This document shows, in pieces, positions 11,014 to 58,397 of a stretch of DNA of 64,000 nucleotides. The notes under the pieces are model-generated. The model ran no database searches, had not been told where the DNA came from, and saw only the letters and a list, made by a program, of their open reading frames with translations. This DNA is from Fistulifera solaris (taxonomy: Eukaryota): assembly GCA_030295235.1 (NCBI GenBank), contig AP026133.1:868001-932000 (forward strand), written 5' to 3'. Within the stretch, counting starts at the first letter, position 1. Every line of letters begins with the position of its first letter. Made by a program: the position numbers and the translations under genes.

Positions 11014-11648
11014 TTTCAAAGAGAGAGAGAGTGCAAGGAAATCAATGAAGATACGACTAGCTCTCACACACTTGAAAGGCAATGAATGAGCGAATCAAAT
11101 AATCGACAACGACTACACAATACGCAATCCAAACATTATACCGGTAGTCGCACGAAAAGCCAACAAAGCCGGGTCATCGTCCCCTGTCCTCTCCCAAGAA
11201 TGCCAGCATACAAGATACGCGGAGTCCCGAGGAGCACTCTTCCGTGGAGGGTGTCCAAGGCTACTGTTTTCGATAGAGTACAAGACGTTTTTCGCTCGAC
11301 CGGATACAAGAATGTACCATCCGTGACCGGTGGGATTTTGATATCGGGATTCGTGATTGTGACTTTTCACTTTTCACGTTTGTTGAAGTGGTCTGTCGTC
11401 TGTCGTCTGTCGTCTGTCGCGTTTTTTTTCGCACGCATCGCAATCGCGTGACTCAAAAATTCATTCACGTTTTTGCGGGAAAAAGAGAGATCGCGAAGCC
11501 GCAACAACGATGAGGATGATGATCATTCAATAATGCCTATAGCACTGCTAGCTACCCATTTCTTCGTTCCTTTTCTTTTTTGATTCTGTTCTGCACTCGA
11601 TCCACTTTATACCATTACTCTCCTCCTATCCCGTGACTCATAATATAT

Positions 11649-14161
11649 ATGAATCATCATCATAATATCACCAACTCTTTCTCGCCGTCACAAATTTGTG
11701 CTTCACTGACGATTCAAGAGGCACACTGGCCCGAATCATGTCCTCCAGAAGAAGGATTTCTTTCTGTTATTACTGGGAATACACATTGTAAATTTGCCTA
11801 TCATGATGGAAGTGATTATCGTCCTCGGTCCTTTTGGAGGTACGTGTTGGAGTGGTGTTCGAAGAAAAGAAAGAAAAGAAATGGAAAGGCACATTACTCA
11901 TCAACATCCTTCTCTTTATTCTTTCTTCTTTTTTTCTTTTTTTCTTATTTAGTATTCCCGTTGCACCGTTGTCACACAACAATCACACGACACAAAATAA
12001 CCGAGACAGTTTTCTGGAATCCATTCCCCATCAATGTACTGCGGCACAAGCCTTGTGGAAATCACCCAATGATACAATCATCAAGCCACTCACACGCGCG
12101 GCCATCTATTATTATCGCGTCACCACGAAACGAATTCCGACCGTCACAATCTATCTCATTTCGACCAATCCTGTTCATGAAAGCATATTAGGACAATGGT
12201 TGCAAGGATTGCCTGTACGATGCATTCGATTGCGTCCGAAGGATGTTGTGTCAATGTCCTTGCCGTATCCGACAATGGGGATGGATCGATTTGTCGCGGT
12301 ACAAGCCATTTCGAAATATCCCGCACTCATTGTAGATGGAGGAACGGCTTTGACGACGACTGTATTGAATGAAAATGGACACATGGTCGGTGGAACGATT
12401 GCACCGGGTTGTATGCGCAATGTCGGGCATTGCATATGGGAAATTTGCCGCTCTTGACACCGGACGAAATACAGCAATTCATGGAACGTAACGAACCTTT
12501 ACCATTGTGGGCGAACAATACTCACGACGCCATGTGGAATGGAGTAATGAGGAGTACGGCTTTGTTCATACGCGCGGTGGTGCGGGAATTTTTGCAGCAG
12601 TATCACGTGCCGGCTAAGAATGGTTCAACAATCGTACATGTGATTGTGACAGGATCGGATGGACCGTTCCTGATGAAATTCTTAAAATCCGAATCATGTC
12701 ACCGATTGTTGGCCCAGATGCCCCGCGATAGTGACTTTGAGTGTGATGACACCACCGTGATGGAATACAATCCACATTTGCTGCATTTTGGCATAACACA
12801 GATTCTGTTGCAGCATCGAGAGAGTAATGATGTCGATGAGTCGTTTCACTCGGAATGGATTGGATTGCGGGTCGCACGGAATGTTGGGCGTGGATATGTG
12901 GATCGGGTCGAACAAACGGAGAATTTGGCACAAGCTTTGTTTCATGTCGTCTATGATCATGGTTGTAGCGAAGTTTTGGGGGTACTGGCATTCTATGGTA
13001 TGTGTCTGTTGCATATTTTGTCGAACTGTATAACTGTTTCTGACAAAAAGGCACTTTCGGGAATCAGATGCTTTGATTCGATACAGTCTAAACGGAGAGA
13101 GTATTGCGACAGTCAACATGACGGAGAGTTCCGCTGTCGAACGAAAACAAAAGGAAGCAGAACGAGCCGCCGCTTTGCTGGTGGAACGGTGTGCCGTCGT
13201 CAAAGAACACAAGGAAAGTACTATTGGTGCCCCGCCTGTGTTTAGTCCAGAGAAAGCGCTGCAAGGGAATGCGTTGTTGCCACATTACATTATACCAAAC
13301 GGGCCAACGCCAGTATTTAGTCCAGGACGAGCCAGGGCGCCACCGAGTCGGAAACGTGGTCGACCTCGAAAGAATTCTCTGTCCCCGCAGCCGATTTTGA
13401 ACGGAGCGATTGCAACAGAAACGAGCAGAAACGTTTCATCACCGCAACTGAGTAGTATCTCATCCAAACGCGGCCGACCTCGCAAGAATCCATTGTCCGC
13501 GACGCTAGTTCCGAATGAGGCGATTGTTGCTAAAACAGGAATGAATGTTTCGGTATCGCAACAGAGTAGCACGCCACGTAAACGTGGTCGACCTCGAACG
13601 AATCCTCTGTCCCTGCAACCGGTTTTGAGTCCAGGTCAAGCGACTAAACGAGGTCGACCTCGAAAGAGTTCTTTGTCCCTGCAACCGGTATCTAATCAGA
13701 ATGAAGCAACTGTAACAGAAAAGGACCTCAATACACTAGCGCTGCCGCAGAGTTCGTCACGCAAACGAGGTCGACCGCGCAAAGATTCTATGCCTACGAG
13801 TCCAGATCGAGCTCCTAGAATGGATCCGAATGACGAGGCAACGGCGTCGCAGCAGAAGCAGAGTACGCCACACAAAGTTGGTCGTCCTCGAAAAAATCCT
13901 ATGAGTTCAAACAAACAAGATCGAAGGCGAAAAGAGTTTCGAAATACTCTGCCTGACGGTGTCCTACCAACGGATTATGTACACCGCCGCGTCGCTAAAT
14001 TCTTTGGGGATGGAAAGACCCCGTTTTACGGAAAAGTTGAGTCTTACGATCCCGAGAGTCAATATTGGAAAATATTGTACGACGATGGAGATGAAGAAGA
14101 AATGGAGTTCTATGAACTAGTTGTTCAATTGAAATGCTATGAAGAGAATAATAATGAGTAG
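11649..14161 (+). CDS. Type III pantothenate kinase (CoaX-like) domain fused to Tudor-like domains and six AT-hooks
   Basis: ITGNTH, MGMDR, IVDGGTALT, GGTIAPG, NTHDAM..GV and VIVTGSDG motifs. Introns 11840-11952 and 12998-13067 join the frames; one-base deletion in the G-run near 12407. Six GRPR[K/T] repeats. C-terminal VAKFFG..FYGKVESYD...WKILYDDGDEEEM. Confidence 0.8.
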
Positions 14162-14813
14162 AACCATGCTTGAGAGCTTGGTAGGCATCTAGTTTCATCT
14201 TCTAAAAGTCTTACGCTAATTCCCAAAACAACATTTAACGCAGACAGCTCCTCCTTTATTCTACCAACTGGGGCCTCGCAATCGAGTTTCGAATCAGCCA
14301 AAGGAGTATACTCCTTTGAATCAGCTATGAGTAGCCTTAGCTCTCTCGTTCTCGAGTGACCACGTTTTTTGTCGTCAGGCGCCGAGAGCTGACTACGGTT
14401 TCATTTCCAACGGAAAAGGATCGTGTTAAATAGTGTGCGTGGTACATAATGGTGATATAATTCGTTTCCTGACACTACGTAGTACTTCAAGTAGAGGGAC
14501 AGCACATTATTCCGCGATTCCGTTCGACCAATACTCCCCCTTCCGCGCAACGTGTTTTCCCACGATCGCTCCCTACGAACGATCTCCGCTGTCAACAAAG
14601 AGAAAAGAGATGCAAGAGGAACTGAGGTGAAAGAGCTTTTTTAGAAAAGGCTTTCATTGCTTTCCACTCGAATGTTGAACTCATCCAGCAAAAGTGAAAG
14701 GACCAAATTGTAGATTGGACTTTGCACAAATTAATAGGGTACTTTCCGTGAGCACTTGAATGACAAGCGGAGCGTGAAAGGTATTATCAAATTCCCCCCT
14801 CACCTCCGACACC

Positions 14814-16048
14814 ATGTCTGGAAAGAGTTATATGTGGCGTGTGGCAGCGCTTCTAGTTGTAATGGGTCATGTGATACTACTCGCAAGTCGATCGCTACCT
14901 TCATTCAATATACCGCGACAATCGCAGCAACGCCAGCTTTCGACGAAAGAATCTCGAACGTGCTCTCTTTCCGAGGAAACATTACGCTTCCAGTTTCATG
15001 AATGGACGAAGACTTATCGTCTCGTCTCGGATGGTACAACCGCCGATGAACGATGGAAATGGACCGTTGATAATTCCTTCAATCAATCCGTAGCGAATAA
15101 GGGGACAAATATTTCCAATCAGAACGAAACGAACCGACTGTTACAAGCCGGAAACAGCAACAATACGACAACGAATCCGGTGACGTTGCGAACCTTTCAC
15201 AAACCAACGGAGCCATTATTGAAGTACGCGCGTGTTGGTGTGCCGAAGCTTATCTGCATCGACCTATTGAATATTGCCCGGCCAGTTTTGATACATGCCT
15301 CGTACGAGGAGAGGAAGGTTTGGTATCATGCTACACGACTACCGGCTCTCATGGTTTTATGAGAAGCTTTTGGCCGTTGGCGTCGTTCTGGATTCTGGCG
15401 CTGGCTTATGCTTTGACATGTACGGACGGAGGTACTTGGGCGCGGCAATACATTCGACGGATACTTGCGCATCCCTCGGAGGGCCAAGTCATGTTGGAGG
15501 AAAATTTGGATCAGTTGCTGGAGGAACGACCCGAACACGCCGTGTTTTTATATCGACAAGCAGTCATGCGGATACGACAAGCCTATTTGGAACCGAGACG
15601 GCGGCGGGAATGGTTTTCCACCTCGAGCGATTCGGATGAATCGCACGCAACGCCAGATGGTGGGGATTTTTTGGAGGCCCCTCGCGATGCATTAATATTA
15701 AAAATCACGACGTATGACGAACCGTCCTCGATGGCACTTCGAACGTCATCCGTGGCAAGGAATAACACGACATCATGGCGTTATGATCAAATCACTTTTC
15801 AGCAAATGGATAGTCAAATGGAGCAAGGACTCCGATGCGCTATTTGTTTGGTGCGTCTGGAGCAGGGAGATGCTGTAGGAGATATTCCTTGCGGCCATGT
15901 ATATCACAAAGCTTGCTTAAAAAGTTGGTTACCGCAAGCCAATCGCTGTCCCTTGTGTCGACACCCTGAAATTGCTACTTTACGGACACGTCGCCCCATT
16001 TCGCAACCAGCATCTATCAGCGAGCTATCAATAGCTCAAATTTACTAA
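14814..16048 (+). CDS. Membrane-anchored RING-H2 E3 ubiquitin ligase-like protein (frameshift near 15320)
   Basis: CAICLVRLEQGDAVGDIPCGHVYHKACLKSWLPQANRCPLCR is a RING-H2 finger. N-terminal hydrophobic signal and a TM segment (FWPLASFWILALAYAL). Confidence 0.8.
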
Positions 16049-23569: not shown

Positions 23570-24520
23570 CCAAGAAATCAGTGGTATTCACACTGGTCCA
23601 GAAAATCTGGACCAGTTGTAATGTCACGGTCCCAGGAAATCTGGGAGAGTGGTATTTACATTGGTCCAGAAAATCTGGACCAGTTGTATTGTCACGTCCC
23701 CCGAAAGTCTGGGAGAGAATATTTTAACTGGTCCAGAAAATCTGGACCTTTTGTATAGTCCGTTCCCAGAAATTCTGGGTGAAGGTATTTTCACTGGTCC
23801 AGAAAATCTGGACCAGTTGTATTTTACCTCTCCAGAAAATCAGGGGGAGTGGTATTTACACGAGTCCAGAAAATCTGGACCAGTTGTATTTTCAGTTTCC
23901 CAGAAAATCTGGGGAAAGATATTATCACAGGTCCAGAAAATCTGGACCAGTTGTATTGTCACGGTCCCAGAAAATCTGGGATTTTGGTATTTTCACTGGT
24001 CCAGAAAATCTGGACTAGTTGTATTTTCAACGTCACCAGAAAATCTGGGGTTGTGTTATTTACACTGGTCAAGAAAATCTGGACCTTTTGTATTGTCCGT
24101 TCCCAAAAAATCTGGGGGTGTGGTATTTTTACTGGTCCAGAAAATCTGGACCAGTTGTATTTTTAACTTCCCCAGTAAATCTTGGGCTCTATTACTTACT
24201 TTTCCAGGAAATCTCGAGGAATGGTATTTACCCTGGTCCAGAAAATCTGGACCAGTTATATTTTCAACGTAACCAGAAAATCTGGACCATTTTATTTTCA
24301 ACTTCCCCAATAAATCTTGGGCTGTATTATTTACGTATCCAGGAAATCTGGGAGAGTGGTTTTACATTGGTCCAGAAAATCTGGACCAGTTGTATTTTCA
24401 GCTTCCCAGAAAATCTGGGGGAAGGTATTTTCACTGGTCCAGAAAATCTGGACTATTTGTATTGTCCGTTCCCAGAAAATCTGGGTGATTGGTATTTACT
24501 GTCCGGAAAATCTGGTTCTA
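23570..24520. repeat. Tandem array of ~28 hairpin monomers (~34 bp) arranged as A/B dimers (~68-bp period)
   Basis: A = CTGGTCCAGA-AAA-TCTGGACCAG (perfect 10-bp stem). B = CCCAGA-AAA-TCTGGG. Linkers are GTATT-like. A copies start at 23593, 23661, 23728 and onward. Confidence 0.95.
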
Positions 24521-24693
24521 AAGGGAAAAACTGGCGCCTCGAAAAAATTCACGACCGCATTTCGGCAAATCATCGTATTATACCAGTACGGAGTAACAAT
24601 TAACAATTGATTAGAAACTATAATATGTTCCTAAGACCCTCAAGATTTCGTCACACGCAAAATACTAATGGAGTAATCATCCGTGTGTGTTGG

Positions 24694-37416: not shown

Positions 37417-39436
37417 CTACGCGAACTTCTCCTTGACATCTTTCGCAACATCCCACATGTTCACCACCGAATCAGCACCGACCGACACGAATTTGTAGCC
37501 GTCATTGACGAACGACAATCCGGTCAGGCCACCACGGTGGGCAAATGGATAATGGACGCGCTTCATCTTCTTGTCCATACTCCACAAATAAATAGAATCA
37601 TCGGCGCCGCCACTCGCAATGACTTGATCGTCTGGCGACCAAGATAGGCAAGTTACTCGTTGCACGTGGAAGCACCAGCGCCCTTTCGCGACCAACGCAC
37701 TGTAGTTGGATAAATCCCAAACGCAAACATCCCGCTGATCACCGGCGGCCAACTTGGTACCGTCATTGGACAGAGCCAGGGCCGTGAGAGGTTTCAAATG
37801 ACCGTTTTCAATGACGTGATTTTCCACCGGTTGGTCTCCTGAAATGTCGTAGATGTGGATTTTGCAGTCATTGCCGCCTACATACAGAGTCTTGTCGTCT
37901 TTCGAAACACAAATCGCGGTGGCTTCGTAGTTGGTCGCCATGATGGTTTGCAAGGCACCACCGGGCCCACAGAGTGCCAAGCCAGCAACGGTCGCGACTG
38001 CACCTTTGTTGGTACCAACCGCAATGGCCGAGGGTTGTGCGCCGATAACTTCCGGTTCCATATTGACCTGAAGACTACCACTGGGTGTGACAAAGAGTTT
38101 GTCATCCCAGCCAACACTCTAACAAGGCCCCGTTCATCACGGCCAAACCAGAAACAGCCCCCGTGTGCACAACGTACATGAGATCCGCATTTCCTTCGGA
38201 TGGCAACAATCGTCCCTTGGCAGTACAAGTCTTCAAATCCCATTGACACAACACCCCATCCGAATCACCCGTGTAAAAGACTCCATTTGCTACATCCAGT
38301 GCCATCGCACCGACTGCCGCCGAATGTCCTGTTATAACTTGAATCGGATCACTGCTACCGAGCGGGGGTAGCAACGAAATTTGCCCATTCAATCCCACCG
38401 AGACGGGTCGCTTTCCACCCGAAAAAGCACACGCAACTTGATTGCCACCGACGGGTACTTTGTCGTACGTTCCACCATTCTGGTGTTCGGCTGGCTTCCA
38501 GGTATGTTGTTCCGACAAGGTTCCGTTGTCATCAACCGCAAACAATTTACAGGTACCATCCCCTGACGCTGTCATGACGTATTTATCGTCACCTGACCAG
38601 TCAACACAGTAAATCGTAGCCGAGTGGACTTGTTCCAGTTTGTGTTTCAATTCCAGTGTTTTACCATCATAGGTACAAATCGCTCGATCCGACGATACGG
38701 AGACCACCAGCGTTCCGGTTTGATTGTATCGAACACACGTGACCGCTCCTTTCGAATGTCCCGAATCCTGTGGAATACCATCCACGGGAGGAATTTTGGC
38801 AAAGGGTGGACCTTGATGAAAGTACGTTTTCGTATCATCTTTCCCGGCCGTAACGATCCGGAAGGGTCGATTGGGTTTGTACGCGACTGACGCCACCCGA
38901 CCTTTGAAATGCATCGCCAAGGCTCCAACGGTGACCCCCGTATCGTACTGCAAGACGCGGGCACAATCACTCCGGGCATCCAATCGTTCTCCTCCCATGG
39001 CGACTTTTTTGGATTCCCCATCCCAGGCCAAATCACGAATGACACTGGTCAAACCCGGATTCTCGTATTTGCACAAATGATCTTCGTGATCAAAGGCCCA
39101 AATGCGGAGCATCCCGCGTTCATCTCCCGATGCCATGTACGCCCCAGAGGGACTCAATTTGAGTGCCGTGGCCGTGTAATGATGTCCCCGATAACACAAG
39201 ACGGGGAGCGGACTGATGCTCGGTAAGAGTGCACTACCGTCGAGTGTGCGAGTGACAATGAGTTTTCCAGAACAATAACTTAACATGGGTTTGTCATTGC
39301 CGTGCAAACGACCGGACGTTCCATCCAACGAGCAGCGTTCGCCGCGTTCCGTGTGAGGGATCGGCGGTGTGCTGATAATGACGGGCGATGTGGGGGGCAA
39401 GCAACTGTTGGAAGCGTCGGGTCCTTTCGGTGCCAT
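37417..39436 (-). CDS. WD40 actin-interacting protein 1 (AIP1/WDR1)-like (frameshift near 38100-38120)
   Basis: PHTERGER, SPSGAYMASGDERGMLRIW, AWDGESKK, DTGVTVG, KPNRPFRIVT, QGPPF and FHVQRVTCLSWSPD...ASGGADDSIYLW motifs. Confidence 0.88.
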
Positions 39437-39942
39437 GTTGATTGTTACGAGTAGTAAAATATGGCTCTGGAAAAGATGTTGATGCTGATGTTATTTCGTT
39501 TTGAAAGCTACCAGGTATAGCAAAGAGGTCAGCTTCTTGATGAGGAGCAAGATGTGCCACAACTACTACGTACTACGTACTAGAAATAATGACCGTTTGG
39601 AGGTGCGAAGTGCGAAGAATGACCGTTGCGATGTTTCTCACCGCACGTGACTTGTTTATTCGTGATTGATTCAAACGATGACACCCCCACTGACACTATG
39701 ACGGACGCGTTCGCTTTTTTGAGTGAGTCCGATCCATCAAGGAAAATCAGAAACCTCATTTCCACAACATTCGTGTAGTTGGCGACGATCTTTTGGTCAT
39801 CGTCCTTTATTACTGTGAAAGAATTCTCAGTTCTAAAACGAAAACTCTTGTCAAGCGGCTTTTCAATAAATACGATTCATCAGTTTAGTTTTACTTCTCG
39901 ATCGATTCATTTCAACTCGTGCTCGCTTCTTTTACCTCAAGA

Positions 39943-51575: not shown

Positions 51576-52879
51576 GCACTGATGAGATATATGCCATGAA
51601 GAATGATCTGTCGCAGTCAATTTCGCGTTACGCCACCAACGGCTAGTTTCCGATCTCAAGCTTGCAAGAACAAGACGCGGATACTTGTTCACGCCGCCGC
51701 TCCCTGGCTTTTGCGGGCCATGTCACTCTTTGTCATCCTTTATGCAGCGGTGACGGTTAAACTAATTTCGACGTCGATTGGTCACAAGAGCGTACAATTT
51801 CTTGCTATCCCCATATGGTTTGAACCACCTTCTCTTCATGTATCGACTATCCAGTGCTTTTATTTTCTGACACGCAAAAGTGCGAATGTATAACCATCAG
51901 TTAGAATATGATCTGCTGAAAAGTTCTGCTCTGGATTTTTGGGGTAAGAGCGTGAAAATCAATTCTATTGTTAACACGCGAGACTGGGATCGAGTGAAGT
52001 CGGGTCTAACTGCCAATAGCGATTCGAGTTTCTGATTCAGTGATTCAGATGGGGGTCAGAAGTATCGTACCGTAGTGTATGTAAAGGCAGATTGCCGCTA
52101 AGCTTGATAAAGCTACAAGCTGTCGCAAAAGGTTTCTCTATTTCGACTTTCGGAATTTGATGTTTGAACGCTTGACGCAAGCTTGGCTTAACTCAATTAT
52201 CAGGTTGAAAGGCAACAGTGAATAGGGTTTGCCCAGTTGCTACGTAGTAGGCTTTAAACTAATCGCGGCATCGAAGACACGCTCTTTACTAGAGACTGCT
52301 TGGGAGCTCGAGTGATAGAGTGCAACGAGCAGTGGTTGGTTCACGGATCCAGCAAGGATAGTTCAAGTTCAAGTAGGTTACCTGGTACTGGTATTCAGGC
52401 TTCCAGGGGGAGGATTCGTGTTTCGTGTGCCATCCGTGATCTCTCATCCCTCATTCAATTCTACTTAGGATTTATCACTTAAGCCCACAAATTATCACCA
52501 CCTTTTGATCATTCTTTATGTTCTATGTTTATTTTATCGATCGATCTGTGATCCATGCAGTTTCGAACTGTGAACAGAGTACATTTCTCATGACTCTCGT
52601 CTCAATCTTTCTCAGGAACCTCTTTAGTTCGTGTACGGTGTACGGGGAAATTAAAGGCCTAACCCGAACCCCCGTACACAACTGCCCAAAGTCTTGTACC
52701 TAAAGAACATCCAATGGCCCCGGTATCTTTTGTCGCTTCAAAAGAATGAGGTCGATCATGAAGATAACGCCTTTTTATCATGATTTCATTGCCTTTGACT
52801 GGGATACCTTTCACATTCTTTGATCATTTCATCATTTAAAAACCTCTTTGTTTAAACAGAACAGAAAAGACTTTTTATC

Positions 52880-55732
52880 ATGACAGCCGGAGACCTTGAG
52901 AGCGGCGCAAAAGGCAAGATATTCGATCCAACGGACGCTGACACCGTCCTTGGCAGCCATTGCATTGTGTACGTCGAAACGGAAGATACGGAGAATGTTG
53001 AGAGTGAGATCGATGCCTGGATTGAAAACAATACAGTTGTCGTCTTTGGCAAATCGTGGTGTCCGTTCTGCAAGGACGTCATCGAGTTTTTGTCTCAGCG
53101 CCTCAATGTTGTTACGCACGTCGTCAACATGGATTCGATTAACGGCGGTTCGAAGATTGCTACGTACGTTCAAGAGAAGACACAGCACAAGACTGTTCCA
53201 GTCGTCTTTATTAATGGAAAATTCAGAGGTGGATGTGAAGATGTCAAGTCGAAACAAGAACAACTTGAAAAGAATTGCTGATGCATCGTAATACGACGCA
53301 TGAAGAAATCAAGAGCTTGGATGCCGCCAGATTGTCCCTCGAGTACCGATCGACTGCTCGTAATCCATTGTTCTGGTTTCCAAATACGGTCAACAATCGC
53401 GTTGTTCGACTCACAGGTTTTCAAGTCTTTGTTTGTAGCGTCCTTTCGGCAGCCTTTCATACGGAGCTTTGGGGTCGCTATCTCGCCGTCTTTCTGTTGG
53501 TGGATTTCGGTCTCCGTATGTCCGTTGGAAGCTTTCTTTCCCCGCTCGGAATGATCGCTACGGTCGTAGCGAGCCCGTTCGCTCCCACCTTCCGACCGGG
53601 TGCACCCAAGCAGTTTGCTTCCTTCTGTGGTCTCACCTTTTCGCTCCTGGCCACCATCTTTTATTTTGCGAAATTCGAATACCACGAGGTCGTGGGTGCT
53701 ATTTGGATTGCCATGATCGCGGGTGCGTCCGGATTGGAAGCCTTCTGTGACTTTTGCTTGGGTTGTGTGTTTTTGGTCTCGGTATTCAGTTCGGACTCCT
53801 TCCCGACGACTGTTACCGCATTCATACACAAACGATTCGTGAAACGCAAGAGTCGTATGACTACAAGATGACCAATCAAAATGTTCCAGCTCCGGTCGCA
53901 ATCGACACCAATCCCTCTGATCCGACTGCACTCAAGTACAAGGTCAAGACCGACGAGTGGACGAAGAATGACTTTGATCCTATCAAGCACATGCAGGTCG
54001 GCTACTTTGCCATGCCTTTGTCGCTTGCGGGTCTCGCCGTGGCATTTAAGATGGCGACGGTAAAGGGAATGCAAGATTTGGTCGTACAAGAAGAATACTA
54101 CTACGTGATCAGCTCACTCGCCGCCGGTATCATGGCAGTTTTCGTTGGCTTGTACGGTCTACGCTTGGCCATGTATCCACACAAGTGTTGGACGGAATGG
54201 GTGAGCCCTCTTCATTCCAACAGCTTTGGAGCTATTACTATCACATTGCTGCTCTTTGCGTTCTTGGTGCACGATGATTTGGATGCAGAAAACAATACAA
54301 CCGGTCGCGTCTTGTTCTGGTGTGGTGCTATCGGACAGACTTTCATCACGGTCGCCAAGACGGGAGAGTGGGTTGGTCGACGCTTAGAGACCGAACACAT
54401 TCATGCGCATTGGATGATTGTTCCAGTTGGCTTGGCTGTGGCTTCCTTAGTGGCTTCCACTATCGAACCGTTTGCGACGGAGGAAAATTCCAACTCGAAA
54501 GGAAACCTGATGCTGGCTCGGTTTTTTCAGTCGTTTGGCTCGCTTATGTGGATTGCTCTGTTTGCCGTCACCTTTTTAAGACGGTAATTGATCACAACAG
54601 CGACAACCGTGTTCGCCATGGCGTTTGGATCTGGTTGGCTGCCCCGTGTATGATTGGCCTCTCGCAGTACAACATTTGCATTCAAGAGAATATCGTGAAC
54701 TCGACATGCGAAGGTGACTTTGCGACCTATTACTTTATCGGCTTATTTTTTCTCATGGGACTATGCTATGCTGGTCTCTCCGAGTACGCTTTCTTTGGCC
54801 AGGACACGTTCAACTTTGGCTACTGGATCGAGTGCTTCGCCTTGGATGCATTGGCTGCTTGTGCTTGTTTGTTCTACGCACTAAATGGCTGGCGTATCAG
54901 TCAAAACTTGCAGTGGCTTGCTCTTTGTGCGGCTGCAGTTTGTAACTTTTGTGCCCTCTGCCACACCCTTGTTGGAATCGTCAACCAGCGCGGTGTATTT
55001 ACTCCAGAGATGAAATGGGGACCTCTTTCGTTCATGAAATTGACACATGAAGCTTTCCGGGGCAACATCGAAACGCTTAAGCACTATCTCCAGTCTTCTA
55101 ACCTTGTGACAGAAGAAGGACGTCACTGCGTCGATATGTTTGCTGTTCATTTCCAGCGATTCCGAATCTTGCATGAAGAACACGCCAAGCACGAAGACGA
55201 GATCATTTTCAAGACTTTTAACGATTTCTTTCCCCAGCACGCCAAAAAGTGGAACGACGATCACAGCGAAGACCACGCCCATTTGGATCGCTGGGTGAGC
55301 CTAGCCAATAAGCTTCTCGACACCTCGCTCACCCTTGCCGAACGGGAAAGTGCGCTTACGCAGTTGCAGCAGCAGATCACTCCATGGTTTGGTCACTTTG
55401 AAGGGCATTTACGCGGCGAGGAAGATCATTTGAACCCAGTTGGACGCAAGTATCTTCCCTTGGCTGTTATGAAAGAAATGTCGCGCAAGACATGGGAAAT
55501 TACTCCGGCCGATCGCTGGGAAGTCATCATTCCTTTCATCGTGAACAATTTGCCCCGCCACGAGCAGCGCGTTCGCTATTTGAAGGTTCTGACCTGGAGC
55601 TTGCAAGAGCGCGCGCAGCAGATTGGTGCCATTTTGTACCGTCACACGGATGCTGTGATGTGGGAACGTTTGACCCGTGAAGTTCCCGAGATTATCCCCC
55701 GTGGCGTTCCAGGATGGCGCCGTTATTACTAA
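52880..55732 (+). CDS. Multidomain membrane protein: glutaredoxin + DUF4395 + SLAC1/TDT-type anion channel + hemerythrin (HHE) domain
   Basis: Grx: KSWCPFC, TVPVVFINGKFRGGC. DUF4395: VRLTG, DFGLR, GAPKQFA, LEAFCDFCLGC. TDT: YFAMPLSLAGLAVAFK, EW..PLHSN, WMIVPVG, WIWLAAP, GYWIECFAL. HHE: HEAFR, HAKHEDEIIF, DH, HLRGEE. Four overlapping ORFs joined by indels at A/T runs (~53268, ~53772, ~54575). Confidence 0.8.
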
Positions 55733-56366
55733 GGCGACGATCTTACATAATTACACGTTCAGTCTTCGATAGTGCAACAGCATTATTTGAATACTTGTTC
55801 GTTTGCTGATCGATAACCTTGATGATTTCAAAACGGAAGAAGAAGTGATGTTCTTTGTAATAGCGGATAGCGGCGGTTTAAACCGCATTTATCACAAAGG
55901 CCGCATCCTCCACTCTCTACAACTCGTCCATTATCTCAGTGCCCATCATCCAGCATCCATCCGCCCATGCCATGGCATGGTGCCTTTCCTTCGTCCTTCG
56001 TCCTTCGTCGTCCGTCTCCACCCTTGTCTGATAGCTGATGGTGTAAAGTCACTGGTTTGAATCTGGCACTGAGTTTGTTATGACTAGCTCTCGCGACAAT
56101 TTATATTGCCTACTAAATGTATCGGAGAAACACTTTGCGTATTTTGTACGGAGCATTTAAATCCACCACGTTTGCGGAGTAATAATATCGATTGCTTTTG
56201 ACAAGAAATACTCCGTTAACCGAGGAAGCCACAAGCCAAACGCCGCCTCGGTGAGGCTGCGTTAGCGCTTATCATCTATCCTCTCATTATTTTTCCTTGA
56301 AACTTCGTCCTGAAAACAGCGTCGCATGTTCACATCACATTCGCTGAAATAACTTCGTTGAAAGCC

Positions 56367-57047
56367 ATGAAACCTCGAACATCAAGTGACTTAAATAATC
56401 TTGCTATTTTGCTTTTGCAAAGCAACTGCTTTCGCCCTGCCTTAACAGCGTTCCAAGATGGAGAAGTGTTGCAGCAGAAGAAATGTTTGCCTTCACAACG
56501 ACGTTATTCTGCAGAAGCCGTCCCGCCACCGATGGCGCGAGCAGTATCCACTGAAGCCGTTGATGTGAATGATATTTCTAGAATGCCTTGTGCAAGGTCG
56601 CTACTTGAATTTCTGAAAGTCACGACGTCCCGGAAAATTTTACTTCTTGTTCGACTGCCAAGGAAGTCGCCATTTGCTAAAGCAGTCCTACATTACAATC
56701 AGGCAATGGCACACCTTGCCGCATCGTCGGCGAATAACAAAGAGAATGTCGAACAGTGCAAAGCCGAAGTAAAACATTTCCTTGAACTTGCATCCGTCAC
56801 CTTACAAAAATGGTACGCATACCTCACTAAGGTGAATGCTGGGCATTCGAATCTCATGAGGGAAACTTTGATGCTACTAATGTTGGTAACATACACACTT
56901 TACCAATGGACGGGCGTTCCATCACTCACTCGCCGAATTCATGCAATACAAGCTCTTATATCCTCCAACGATTCGCAGAACAGCGTTCTAGGTGTTGGAG
57001 AGGCGCCGCTCAGTGCCAGTCCGTTAAACGCAGTCGTAACAGTTTGA
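56367..57047 (+). CDS. Hypothetical helical (TPR-like) protein, paralog A
   Basis: SDLNNLAILLLQSNC, LVRLPRKSPF, YNQAMAHL and LQKW shared with 57687-58397. Confidence 0.65.
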   Translation: MKPRTSSDLNNLAILLLQSNCFRPALTAFQDGEVLQQKKCLPSQRRYSAEAVPPPMARAVSTEAVDVNDISRMPCARSLLEFLKVTTSRKILLLVRLPRKSPFAKAVLHYNQAMAHLAASSANNKENVEQCKAEVKHFLELASVTLQKWYAYLTKVNAGHSNLMRETLMLLMLVTYTLYQWTGVPSLTRRIHAIQALISSNDSQNSVLGVGEAPLSASPLNAVVTV

Positions 57048-57686
57048 GTTGCCCGCTGCTTTTGCTCGAGCAATGTTGGACGAACAAAGCCCTCTACAAT
57101 TGAATACATACATTGTCATACAAATTTACTGCGAAAAGACTTAATTTGATTCACATGAGATCTATGTCATGTTTAGCGACTCTTCATTTTTTCCATGGAA
57201 AGTTAACTAGTCCGTCACTCTTTTTCTTCCGCTTTTTCTTGCGGAAAAAGTGAAGCGGGGTGGGTCACATCGTCACATCTGCCGTCAGCGACAAGTCAGA
57301 TGCTCTCGCGAGAGCGAATTATCACTGGATTAGGAGATAATACACTTTACTTTATAGTGGAACATTCACGGTACTGAAGAGTTTTTCTTTTCTCTACCTC
57401 CTGTTCCATGTTCTCTATTCCTCCGCCCCTCCCCCCGACACCGACTAAAAGACCGCGCTTGACGCTCGTTGCTCGTTACCATCAACCGCAACGCAAGCCA
57501 TTCAAAAGGAAAGAAACAAAACCAAAATACTCCGACGTAACAACGATAGACATACTACGCCTTGCTTCTCAGAGCAATAGGAACGACAAATTTATTTCAG
57601 AGTCGTGTGTTGATCCTCGTCAACAACTTACACGGCAAACGACCCCCTTGTATTTTCTTCGTTTGCAATCTGCTTTAACCAGAACG

Positions 57687-58397
57687 ATGAAATCGCGAAG
57701 CGATTTGAACAACCGAGGAATTGTATTGTTACAAAGCAACTGCATTGCCGGCGCTTGTCAAGTTTTTGAAGAAGCTGTGAGGAAAACAACAAACGTACCT
57801 CGCTCTCGAAGAACTACGACCGAGGCATTACCGCACCGTTCTGTGAATTCTTCGTCTCACGTTATAGACTTCCATACCTTGGAAAATAGTGCCGATGCGA
57901 AAGCTCTGTTACTTCTGATGCACCAGGCTTCAATTGTTTTGATTCGACTGCCTCGCGAGTGTCCGTTTACTGCTGCTGTCGTTCCTTATAACGCAGCCAT
58001 GTCGCAATTATCTTTGGCTGCAGTCTGTGTTCTAAATACGATCAAGGCGGAAGAATGCCGGGAAGAAGCGAAACGATGGCTTGATCAGTCGCAACAAAAA
58101 CTACAAAAGTGGTGTACTATTTTGGCCCGTAAATGCTCCATTCTGCAATCTACTTGTGAGAAGAATTTGGAATTAGCTGCATTGCTGCGCACGGCCGTTC
58201 TCTTGCAATTGTGGGTCACTGTCACATTGTGCCGTCTATGCCCGAGTAAGGAACGACACAACGAAATTCAGCAAATACAATTATTTTTACTGAATCATGA
58301 TCAGAGGCAGCGACTTCAACAAGGCGTGCGGATAGAACCTCCTCCCATTTCGCCGTCTTCCACAAAGGCACAAGCGCCCAGCAAAACTGCGGCGTGA
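57687..58397 (+). CDS. Hypothetical helical (TPR-like) protein, paralog B
   Basis: SDLNNRGIVLLQSNC, LIRLPRECPF, YNAAMSQL, LQKW; start taken at MKSRSDLNN by analogy with A. Confidence 0.65.
   Translation: MKSRSDLNNRGIVLLQSNCIAGACQVFEEAVRKTTNVPRSRRTTTEALPHRSVNSSSHVIDFHTLENSADAKALLLLMHQASIVLIRLPRECPFTAAVVPYNAAMSQLSLAAVCVLNTIKAEECREEAKRWLDQSQQKLQKWCTILARKCSILQSTCEKNLELAALLRTAVLLQLWVTVTLCRLCPSKERHNEIQQIQLFLLNHDQRQRLQQGVRIEPPPISPSSTKAQAPSKTAA

Follow-up and report, generated by a model that had tools for sequence, protein, structure and literature searches.

A glutaredoxin-DUF4395-TDT/SLAC1-hemerythrin fusion protein of the diatom Fistulifera solaris as a candidate redox- and iron-responsive anion pore

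The stretch of 64,000 nucleotides of Fistulifera solaris described here (GenBank assembly GCA_030295235.1, contig AP026133.1, positions 868,001 to 932,000 of the forward strand; referred to below as the window) contains a gene for a protein of 951 residues. This protein combines, from the N terminus to the C terminus, a glutaredoxin (Grx), a DUF4395 membrane module, a TDT/SLAC1-type pore domain, a hemerythrin-like domain, and finally one conserved tail of ∼70 amino acids. The gene is intact and intronless, and its division into four open reading frames (ORFs) in the assembly is an artifact of three one-base deletions in homopolymers. The function proposed below, to which a probability of roughly 0.55 is given, is that of a TDT anion pore that is controlled through thiol chemistry and a di-iron sensor or is coupled with them. 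A TDT/SLAC1 pore with fused redox and di-iron modules is unprecedented, and the proposed function, if true, would establish a direct molecular link from thiol redox and iron/O2 status to anion flux.

Gene structure and integrity

Four plus-strand ORFs cover the region: 52856-53281 (frame 2), 53269-53871 (frame 1), 53751-54587 (frame 0), and 54278-55732 (frame 2). The frame change between successive ORFs is a -1 shift at every step. Taken separately, the ORFs show Pfam matches to glutaredoxin (E value of 2.2e-13), DUF4395 (3.1e-20), SLAC1 (1.2e-21, covering only positions 1-194 of the 331 of the profile), and hemerythrin (0.0024, with 18.8 bits below the cut-off of 25.3). The initial annotation had proposed that they form one chain of ∼950 residues joined at single homopolymer indels. 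This is borne out by public data: the read-through of the window equals the 951-residue protein "hypothetical protein FisN_2Lh445 [Fistulifera solaris]" at NCBI (P0001), whose residues 1-130, 132-298, 299-566, and 567-951 correspond letter for letter to the four in-frame pieces of the window, the last piece with 100% identity. The fusion is not unrecorded; P0001 and its homoeolog are both public as intact hypothetical proteins. The features of the gene are as follows, with residue numbers according to P0001 and conservation counts, here and below, from an alignment of 45 full-length relatives:

52880..55732, plus strand: whole gene, ATG at 52880, stop codon TAA at 55730-55732, 951 codons after restoring three missing bases, intronless
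53036..53224, plus strand: glutaredoxin domain, residues 53-115, with the CPFC active site at 53060-53071
53268..53271, plus strand: joint 1, A4 run, assembly short by one base, frame 2 to frame 1, protein ...QLEKELLMH...
53389..53780, plus strand: DUF4395 module, residues 171-301, about four hydrophobic segments by hydropathy
53626-53628, 53755-53757, and 53764-53766, plus strand: conserved DUF4395 cysteines C250, C293, and C296, respectively, 44/45 each
53770..53774, plus strand: joint 2, T5 run within DUF4395, assembly short by one T, frame 1 to frame 0, protein ...CLGCVFFGLG...
53988..54949, plus strand: TDT/SLAC1/TehA-type pore domain, residues 371-691, with F654 at 54836-54838
54573..54577, plus strand: joint 3, T5 run midway through the pore domain, assembly short by one base, frame 0 to frame 2, protein ...AVTFFKTVID...
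55010..55516, plus strand: hemerythrin-like (HHE) domain, residues ∼712-880, with the candidate di-iron ligands H724, H769, E773, H796, H844, and E848
55517..55729, plus strand: C-terminal extension of 71 residues (881-951), no named family

Parts of the window are present in nine public sequencing runs. A short-read check of the three junctions, set beforehand by the initial annotation, was carried out with Logan contigs from four of these runs (X1, X2, X5, and X6, from three studies) aligned to positions 52800-55800. X5 is an RNA library (freshwater metatranscriptome), which here means presence in RNA-derived data rather than proof of transcription, and X6 is a DNA run from a wetland; for X1 and X2, an RNA origin is only a guess, and both may stand near the source of the public reference, yet they still differ from the window at exactly the three joints. 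Stretches that a single run leaves uncovered, such as joint 1 in X5, do not enter the evidence. Every covered joint carries one extra base. At joint 1, the haplotype that matches the window has an additional A behind 53267 and a second haplotype has a G behind 53271, together accounting for 40.5/40.6 of the depth in X1, 79.8/79.8 in X2, and 17.5/17.5 in X6. Joint 2 shows a T behind 53769 (X1, 34.3/34.3; X2, 57.1/57.1; X5, 4.24/4.24; X6, 11.8/11.8), and joint 3 shows a T behind 54572 or a C behind 54574/54577 (X1, 28.3/28.3; X2, 87.5/87.5; X5, 3.62/3.62; X6, 21.6/21.6). Contigs that are otherwise identical to the window (records 1 and 4 of X1 and record 21 of X5) span each joint with exactly one gap. 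Splice-like, skip-type joints are not seen in the contigs aligned to 52800-55800, and there is therefore no sign of introns.

The second haplotype differs in ∼8% of the bases (24/261, 37/441, 21/253, and 23/302). It is explained by the allopolyploidy described for F. solaris, with 9007 homoeologous gene pairs (PMC5935921). The homoeolog FisN_2Hh445 (P0266) is likewise 951 residues long, identical to P0001 at 909/951 positions, and member of the same 90% cluster. A change of 8% in bases compared to 4% in residues means that the changes are mostly synonymous, and both homoeologs thus appear to be under purifying selection. Of 11 long environmental loci from relatives, 6 unite the five segments in a single unbroken ORF (922-1022 codons); the remaining loci comprise one ORF of 873 codons with a partial Grx and four that are split.

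Real frameshifts, whether in a pseudogene, in four separate genes, or through programmed frameshifting, would also produce assembled ORFs in three frames, and ATG codons do overlap the stops of ORF1 and ORF2 (TGATG and ATGA). This alternative is practically excluded by the extra base at each joint in every short-read contig, including those otherwise identical to the window and those from the RNA library, by the location of joints 2 and 3 within Pfam domains, by the intact length of 951 residues in both public homoeologs, and by relatives that are single ORFs. Introns behind the frame changes are ruled out by the one-base insertion per joint, the missing splice-like joints, and the collinearity of P0001 with the DNA. 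The same insertions and collinearity, together with joints 2 and 3 lying inside domains, rule out operon-like separate genes with the overlaps TGATG and ATGA. The four-ORF split is a warning of frequent homopolymer indels in this assembly.

Several minor observations concern the same alignments. In a T run 8 bases upstream of the ATG, at window position 52872, the sole X1 contig covering this site is one base shorter (14.8/14.8 of the depth); this is a fourth indel within 3 kb, here with an extra base in the assembly. An in-frame insertion of 6 bases follows position 52975 in about half of the X6 depth (13.4/25.2). Some contigs of the freshwater metatranscriptome X5 match the window exactly over 177-414 bases, while F. 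solaris is described as a marine diatom. A scan for sigma-70 promoters and terminators stays at chance level (4 found versus 4.3 expected and 6 versus 4.4, respectively) and is not meaningful for a eukaryote.

The glutaredoxin domain

The N-terminal domain of P0001 matches PF00462 with 46.8 bits (cut-off, 22.9) and glutaredoxins of the PDB at an E value of 1e-11. The dithiol CPFC center named in the initial annotation is well conserved, with C61 in 45/45, P62 in 43/45, and C64 in 39/45 of the relatives, the other six having Ser or Thr in place of C64. Further conserved positions are T105 (38/45), P107 (45/45), G117 and G118 (45/45), and C119 (44/45). In T105-V-P107 and G117-G118-C119 we see the motifs TVP and GG(C)D(D), which mark the glutathione site of class I glutaredoxins. 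The domain has the sequence pattern of a class-I-like dithiol glutaredoxin with a glutathione site, and its score for the GRX_euk equivalog is 72.9, below the cut-off of 87.25.

The DUF4395 membrane module

The second module is recognized by PF14340 with 72.6 bits (cut-off, 24.5), and P236, G241, Q245, and F246 are invariant (45/45). Outside the Grx, strong conservation of cysteines is limited to C250, C293, and C296. The initial annotation had pointed to the motif CDFCLGC; of this motif, C293 and C296 hold across the family, but C290, its first cysteine, is a cysteine in only 3/45. The resulting CxGC at the end of the last DUF4395 helix is found by pattern in 41/45 of the eukaryotic and 80/80 of the bacterial sequences.

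Bacterial DUF4395 proteins were collected with a query of five sequences, yielding at least 589 relatives in species genomes, from which 80 loci were kept (L001-L080), mostly of Actinomycetota and Chloroflexota. They share with the eukaryotic module the motifs FPN.VN, D/G-F-x-L-R, GPPKQ/RFA, LE, and CxGC. In contrast to the fusions, the bacterial proteins are standalone, with 150-200 amino acids, and have a second CxxC ∼15 residues downstream in 80/80 cases, compared to 0/45 in the eukaryotic fusions, which carry C250 and the tethered oxidoreductase in its place. The 82 neighboring ORFs, taken from 24 of the 80 loci, represent mixed families and include no Grx or thioredoxin, TDT, or hemerythrin protein, and profiles of the Grx, the TDT pore, the hemerythrin domain, and the tail have no match across the 80 loci within 6 kb.

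The N-terminal oxidoreductase is exchanged among relatives. In P0162 (labeled Salpingoeca macrocollata) and P0188, an Rdx domain (SelW/SelT/SelH-like) with CAES and CSSC at the motif position replaces the Grx, and the order of DUF4395, SLAC1, and hemerythrin is otherwise complete. P0194, labeled as the breviate Pygsuia biforma, begins with DUF4395, continues as a TGR-type thioredoxin reductase (TIGR01438 with 604 bits versus a cut-off of 475.85, model positions 1-483 of 485), and has no pore domain. Its sequence ends with ...SGC, presumably as expected if translation had been stopped at the selenocysteine (Sec) codon of the GCUG end of TGR. P0194 is therefore consistent with a Sec-terminated enzyme that would be membrane-anchored through DUF4395. 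These three independent kinds of fusion (Grx, Rdx/SelW-like, and TGR-type thioredoxin reductase) mark DUF4395 as a thiol-redox client. Based on the fusion pattern and the conservation, we infer for DUF4395 the role of a thiol-disulfide (or thiol-ligand) module in the membrane that a cytosolic reductase services. For an uncharacterized family, the domain swaps thereby provide a testable role, that of a thiol-redox client in the membrane.

Two side observations concern the bacterial proteins. Their four cysteines, in CxGC and CxxC spacing, could form a metal site. Their neighbors vary by lineage, with an ADP-ribosylglycohydrolase in Arthrobacter-like and Ppx/GppA in Corynebacteriales-like loci.

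The TDT/SLAC1-type pore domain and membrane topology

In the uninterrupted P0001, PF03595 covers positions 1-321 of 331 of the profile with 87.3 bits (cut-off, 27.9). Structures of TehA from Haemophilus influenzae in the PDB align over ∼300 residues with E values of ∼1e-6 to 2e-7, while no plant SLAC1 chain is matched in the PDB at E values up to 1. The pore domain named in the initial annotation as SLAC1/TDT is thus retained on the side of TDT and bacterial TehA, but not as a match to plant SLAC1. By the curated family scores weighed below, the domain is a divergent TDT member and not a TehA orthologue. F654 aligns with a TehA position that varies among the deposited mutant chains and is Phe in 45/45 of the relatives. 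The available text on the gate describes this pore-blocking phenylalanine of helix 9 as F262 in H. influenzae TehA and F450 in Arabidopsis SLAC1 (PMC10645844). The invariance of the gate Phe and of TDT signature positions across distant lineages argues for a working pore.

A hydropathy scan of residues 372-699 gives eight clear peaks, and only the TehA alignment supplies positions for two further helices. With these limits, taken from hydropathy and the TehA alignment, 19 Lys and Arg residues are counted in the predicted inside loops and 7 in the outside loops. The N terminus of P0001 has no signal-peptide-like stretch. This fits an N-in topology, in which the Grx, the cysteine cluster, the 70-residue linker, the hemerythrin domain, and the tail are all predicted to be cytosolic. 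As a separate observation, the pair C601/C611 (window positions ∼54677-54709) lies in a loop of the pore domain that is predicted to face outside, and both cysteines are present in 30/45 relatives; the pair may be a structural disulfide.

The hemerythrin-like domain and the C-terminal tail

The ligand set H-HxxxE-H-HxxxE of the C-terminal domain is complete, with H724, H769, E773, H796, H844, and E848 each in 45/45 of the relatives, and H766 and H772 are present in 42/45 and 41/45. The initial annotation had stated intact His/Glu ligands, which is confirmed at all six positions, whereas the assignment as HHE hemerythrin itself stays under the curated Pfam threshold in this protein. PF01814 passes this threshold in relatives (7/9 scanned and 32/57 precomputed). 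A profile built from 18 natural C-terminal sequences finds, in the PDB, the hemerythrin domain of FBXL5 (5.5e-4) and the bacterial RIC proteins ScdA (3.6e-3) and YtfE (0.02), and the HxxxE, H, and HxxxE positions align with those of FBXL5. The domain is therefore probably a cytosolic FBXL5-like hemerythrin domain, which would bind a di-iron center through the six conserved residues.

The 71-residue tail following the hemerythrin domain exceeds all other parts of the protein in conservation, with a mean column identity of 0.73 compared to 0.52-0.58 for the named domains. W907, G917, W929, P941, and R942 are invariant.

Family architecture and distribution

The four domains named in the initial annotation occur in the stated order in the domain scan. 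Among 57 longer relatives of the C-terminal piece, all 57 contain PF03595, 32 have all four Pfam families in precomputed annotations, and 12 have Grx, DUF4395, and SLAC1 with a hemerythrin region that is aligned but scores below the Pfam cut-off. The other 13 lack a Grx call, many of them being short enough for truncated models. A scan with the DUF4395 piece through 1.84 billion representatives returns only 362 proteins at E values up to 1e-3. Out of the best 150 of these relatives, 56 were scanned for domains, 43 of at least 640 amino acids that had not already been seen and 13 short ones. SLAC1 lies directly downstream of DUF4395 in 41/43 of the long relatives, and their N terminus carries Grx in 25, Rdx in 2, and no oxidoreductase in 16. 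The 13 short relatives are DUF4395 alone. Two word-based searches at near length, one using the DUF4395 piece and one the hemerythrin and tail piece, recover nothing beyond fragments of this family (8 and 35 proteins, respectively), and a search of the ESM Atlas gives only leads below 0.9.

According to the source labels, members are found in diatoms (Fistulifera, Epithemia, Seminavis, and Helicotheca), brown algae (Ectocarpus and Sphacelaria), the red alga Porphyridium, and green algae, including Chlamydomonas sp. UWO 241, Tetrabaena, Raphidocelis, Ostreobium, a pedinophyte, and the streptophyte alga Mesostigma. Heterotrophic members come from the choanoflagellate Salpingoeca macrocollata, the ichthyosporean Creolimax along with records tagged Pgem and Clim, the diplonemids Diplonema, Lacrimia, and Namystynia, and the cercozoan Papus. 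Land plants, fungi, and animals are not among the labeled matches, but most matches are unlabeled, so that this does not amount to absence from these groups.

In a quick maximum-likelihood tree of 24 labeled rows, four of them long-branched, the diatoms group together (SH-aLRT support of 100) as sister to Porphyridium (99). The diplonemids form a group (100) that is joined by Papus (98), two ichthyosporeans are placed together (100), and Mesostigma and Clim form an unexpected pair (99). The labels cluster on the tree with 9 changes compared to 15.4 in shuffles, of which 0/200 are as low. As judged from tree and labels, the family is old and broadly eukaryotic, with several supergroups including heterotrophs, and not an invention of diatoms; the diatom copy looks to be of red-algal ancestry. 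The family is thus widespread in ecologically important protists, including diatoms, where iron limitation is central. The sequence is already public as a hypothetical protein, and the family is functionally unexplored. In agreement with the initial annotation, which knew of no characterized protein with such an architecture, no paper on the four-domain architecture was found in open-access PubMed Central and bioRxiv, with subscription journals and closed supplements lying outside this search.

Proposed mechanism and alternative readings

Plant SLAC1 is described in the available text as a trimer of ten-helix protomers whose intracellular N- and C-terminal regions form an inhibitory plug that is freed by phosphorylation (PMC10645844). 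In the mechanism proposed here, the TDT domain, with a predicted ten helices, would conduct or carry a small anion, and the two sensor modules would occupy the positions of the plug-forming regions at the N and C termini of SLAC1. The tethered Grx, together with glutathione, would set the thiol/disulfide state of the DUF4395 cysteines (C250 and C293-x-G-C296), predicted to lie at the cytosolic face. The di-iron center would report iron availability, O2, NO, or redox state, and both inputs would bias the opening of the pore. The conserved C-terminal tail may act as the coupling element or as a plug.

Several results weigh against this mechanism. On the side of the pore, the curated cut-offs are missed by far (37.7 bits versus 342 for the TehA equivalog NF008032 and 81.3 versus 237.25 for the tdt subfamily TIGR00816), and TDT members include carriers (Mae1 and Ssu1) besides channels, so that the term channel is not settled. 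The hemerythrin domain scores below the Pfam cut-off in the window ORF, as given above, P0001 has no PF01814 match at E values up to 0.01, and the hemerythrin and tail region as a single sequence has no match in the PDB at E values up to 10. Among the long DUF4395 relatives, the 16/43 without an N-terminal oxidoreductase, some of which may be truncated models, suggest that the Grx may be dispensable. The lack of redox, TDT, or hemerythrin neighbors at the bacterial loci means that genomic context gives no independent support. Exchange between Sec and Cys was examined over 39 environmental loci with TGA read as U, and no Sec codon occurs at CPFC in the 13 Grx-bearing loci or at CxGC in the 26 DUF4395-bearing loci; L083 and L091 each contain one TGA elsewhere in the aligned stretch. 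Neither experiments nor expression studies on a family member turned up in the literature searched.

The thiol modules could instead act on the permeant rather than on a gate. In such reductase-coupled handling of selenite, tellurite, sulfite, or a similar oxyanion, the DUF4395 cysteines at the cytosolic mouth would capture the ion, and Grx and glutathione would reduce it, trapping it for uptake or detoxifying it, with the hemerythrin domain tuning the process to iron or O2 status. DUF4395 is indeed fused to three kinds of thiol or selenol oxidoreductases, one of them the thioredoxin reductase ending with ...SGC, and the labeled matches are from aquatic protists with no land-plant, fungal, or animal names among them. 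The TDT family is named after tellurite resistance and includes a sulfite pump, selenite is reduced by thioredoxin reductase and by Grx, selenoproteomes are large in aquatic eukaryotes, and in Acr3-ArsC fusions a transporter is joined to a reductase. Selenium uptake by algae is a subject of research (PMC6254913). The negative Sec codon test and the surroundings of bacterial DUF4395, which contain no selenium, sulfur, or tellurite genes, speak against this alternative, and it is regarded as a serious but rather unlikely one. Its narrower form, a reductase-coupled uptake channel of aquatic eukaryotes for selenite or another thiol-reactive chalcogen oxyanion, is a long shot. Here, the TDT pore would admit the oxyanion, the DUF4395 cysteines at the cytosolic mouth would bind it as a selenotrisulfide, reduction by the tethered Grx, Rdx, or thioredoxin reductase would render uptake irreversible, and the di-iron domain would throttle uptake under oxidative or iron stress. 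The selenite form would fit the protist lineages with selenoproteomes and the apparent absence from land plants and fungi and, if true, would give DUF4395 a function.

The protein could also be primarily a sensor or redox enzyme and not a conduit, with TDT and DUF4395 serving as a scaffold or ligand site, as in a transceptor, and with an output via the tail to a partner. The tail, the most conserved part of the protein and without a known family, would suit this role, as would P0194, where DUF4395 occurs without a pore domain. The characterized hemerythrin-domain proteins in the available text of a review of hemerythrin sensors are mostly signaling proteins (MCP and c-di-GMP enzymes) (PMC9388753). 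Distant lineages, however, share an invariant gate Phe and invariant TDT signature positions, and the full TDT domain is kept in 41/43 of the long DUF4395 relatives. This renders a mere sensor quite improbable, and the anion pore biased by thiol and di-iron modules is preferred.

Comparison with known systems

The proposed redox- and iron-biased pore shares with TehA, SLAC1, and SLAH proteins the full-length PF03595 domain and the gate Phe, kept as F654. As in SLAC1, long cytosolic regions, here predicted, are found at both ends of the pore domain. In SLAC1, these flanks are disordered phosphoregulated tails, in contrast to the folded redox and iron modules of the fusion. A further difference from TehA and SLAC1 is the extra membrane module, predicted to have four helices, ahead of the pore, and in sequence the domain is far below the curated cut-offs of TehA and tdt and matches no plant SLAC1 chain. 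Plant TDT/SLAC1 pores are gated by kinases, and the role of the bacterial ones is poorly understood.

The hemerythrin domain, although its family profile finds FBXL5, ScdA, and YtfE, is placed differently from that of FBXL5 or BRUTUS/HRZ. By Pfam, P0001 and eight relatives contain no F-box/LRR, CHY, or RING domain and would therefore not be E3 ligase sensors; the hemerythrin domain stands directly behind the last pore helix and is followed by the extra conserved tail of 71 residues. The iron-induced hemerythrin protein Phatr3_J12097 of Phaeodactylum is of the CHY-zinc-finger type according to the available text (PMC5156380) and thus belongs to a different family. P1B-5 ATPases resemble the fusion in carrying a cytosolic hemerythrin-like domain at the C terminus of a membrane transport protein, and the available text leaves it unresolved there too whether O2, redox, or iron is sensed (PMC9388753). 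In contrast to the eukaryotic TDT pore, they are bacterial primary active metal pumps, have the ligand motif H-HxxxE-HxE-HxxxxD, and lack thiol modules. The P1B-5 ATPases are the nearest precedent for the C-terminal half. In the available text, the hemerythrin-sensor review names chemotaxis receptors and c-di-GMP enzymes as well as P-type ATPases and nothing else, with no occurrence of "channel" or "transporter" (PMC9388753). If the proposed mechanism is true, the fusion would be the first hemerythrin-coupled channel.

For the N-terminal half, the likeness is to TGR, which consists of Grx and a Sec-containing thioredoxin reductase and also tethers a thiol oxidoreductase to a client domain in one chain. 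The C-terminal GCUG arm of TGR reduces its N-terminal domain, and DUF4395 in P0194 sits at the N terminus, where TGR has its Grx. In the fusion, by contrast, the reductant would be the Grx and the client the membrane module, followed by the pore.

Other features of the window

Two tandem paralogous ORFs lie directly downstream of the gene on the plus strand, at 56301-57047 and 57378-58397. They show 32% identity over 236 residues (E value of 1e-25) and belong to no Pfam family. At 23579-24515, a tandem array comprises ∼27 copies of a 34-base unit, also readable with a period of 67 or 101, whose core CCAGAAAATCTGG is palindromic. The ORFs 23622-24272 and 24019-24603, which overlap this array, have no Pfam match.

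Overlapping same-strand chains of ORFs in different frames are also found at 37417-39490 (minus strand), 11637-14161 (plus strand), and 14778-16048 (plus strand). Among the chains of the window are two WD40 ORFs overlapping by 17 bases with no obvious homopolymer at this site, a chain of four ORFs with a Pan_kinase match limited to profile positions 98-153, and a RING-finger ORF overlapping the ORF upstream of it. Such chains may represent further homopolymer indels or introns.

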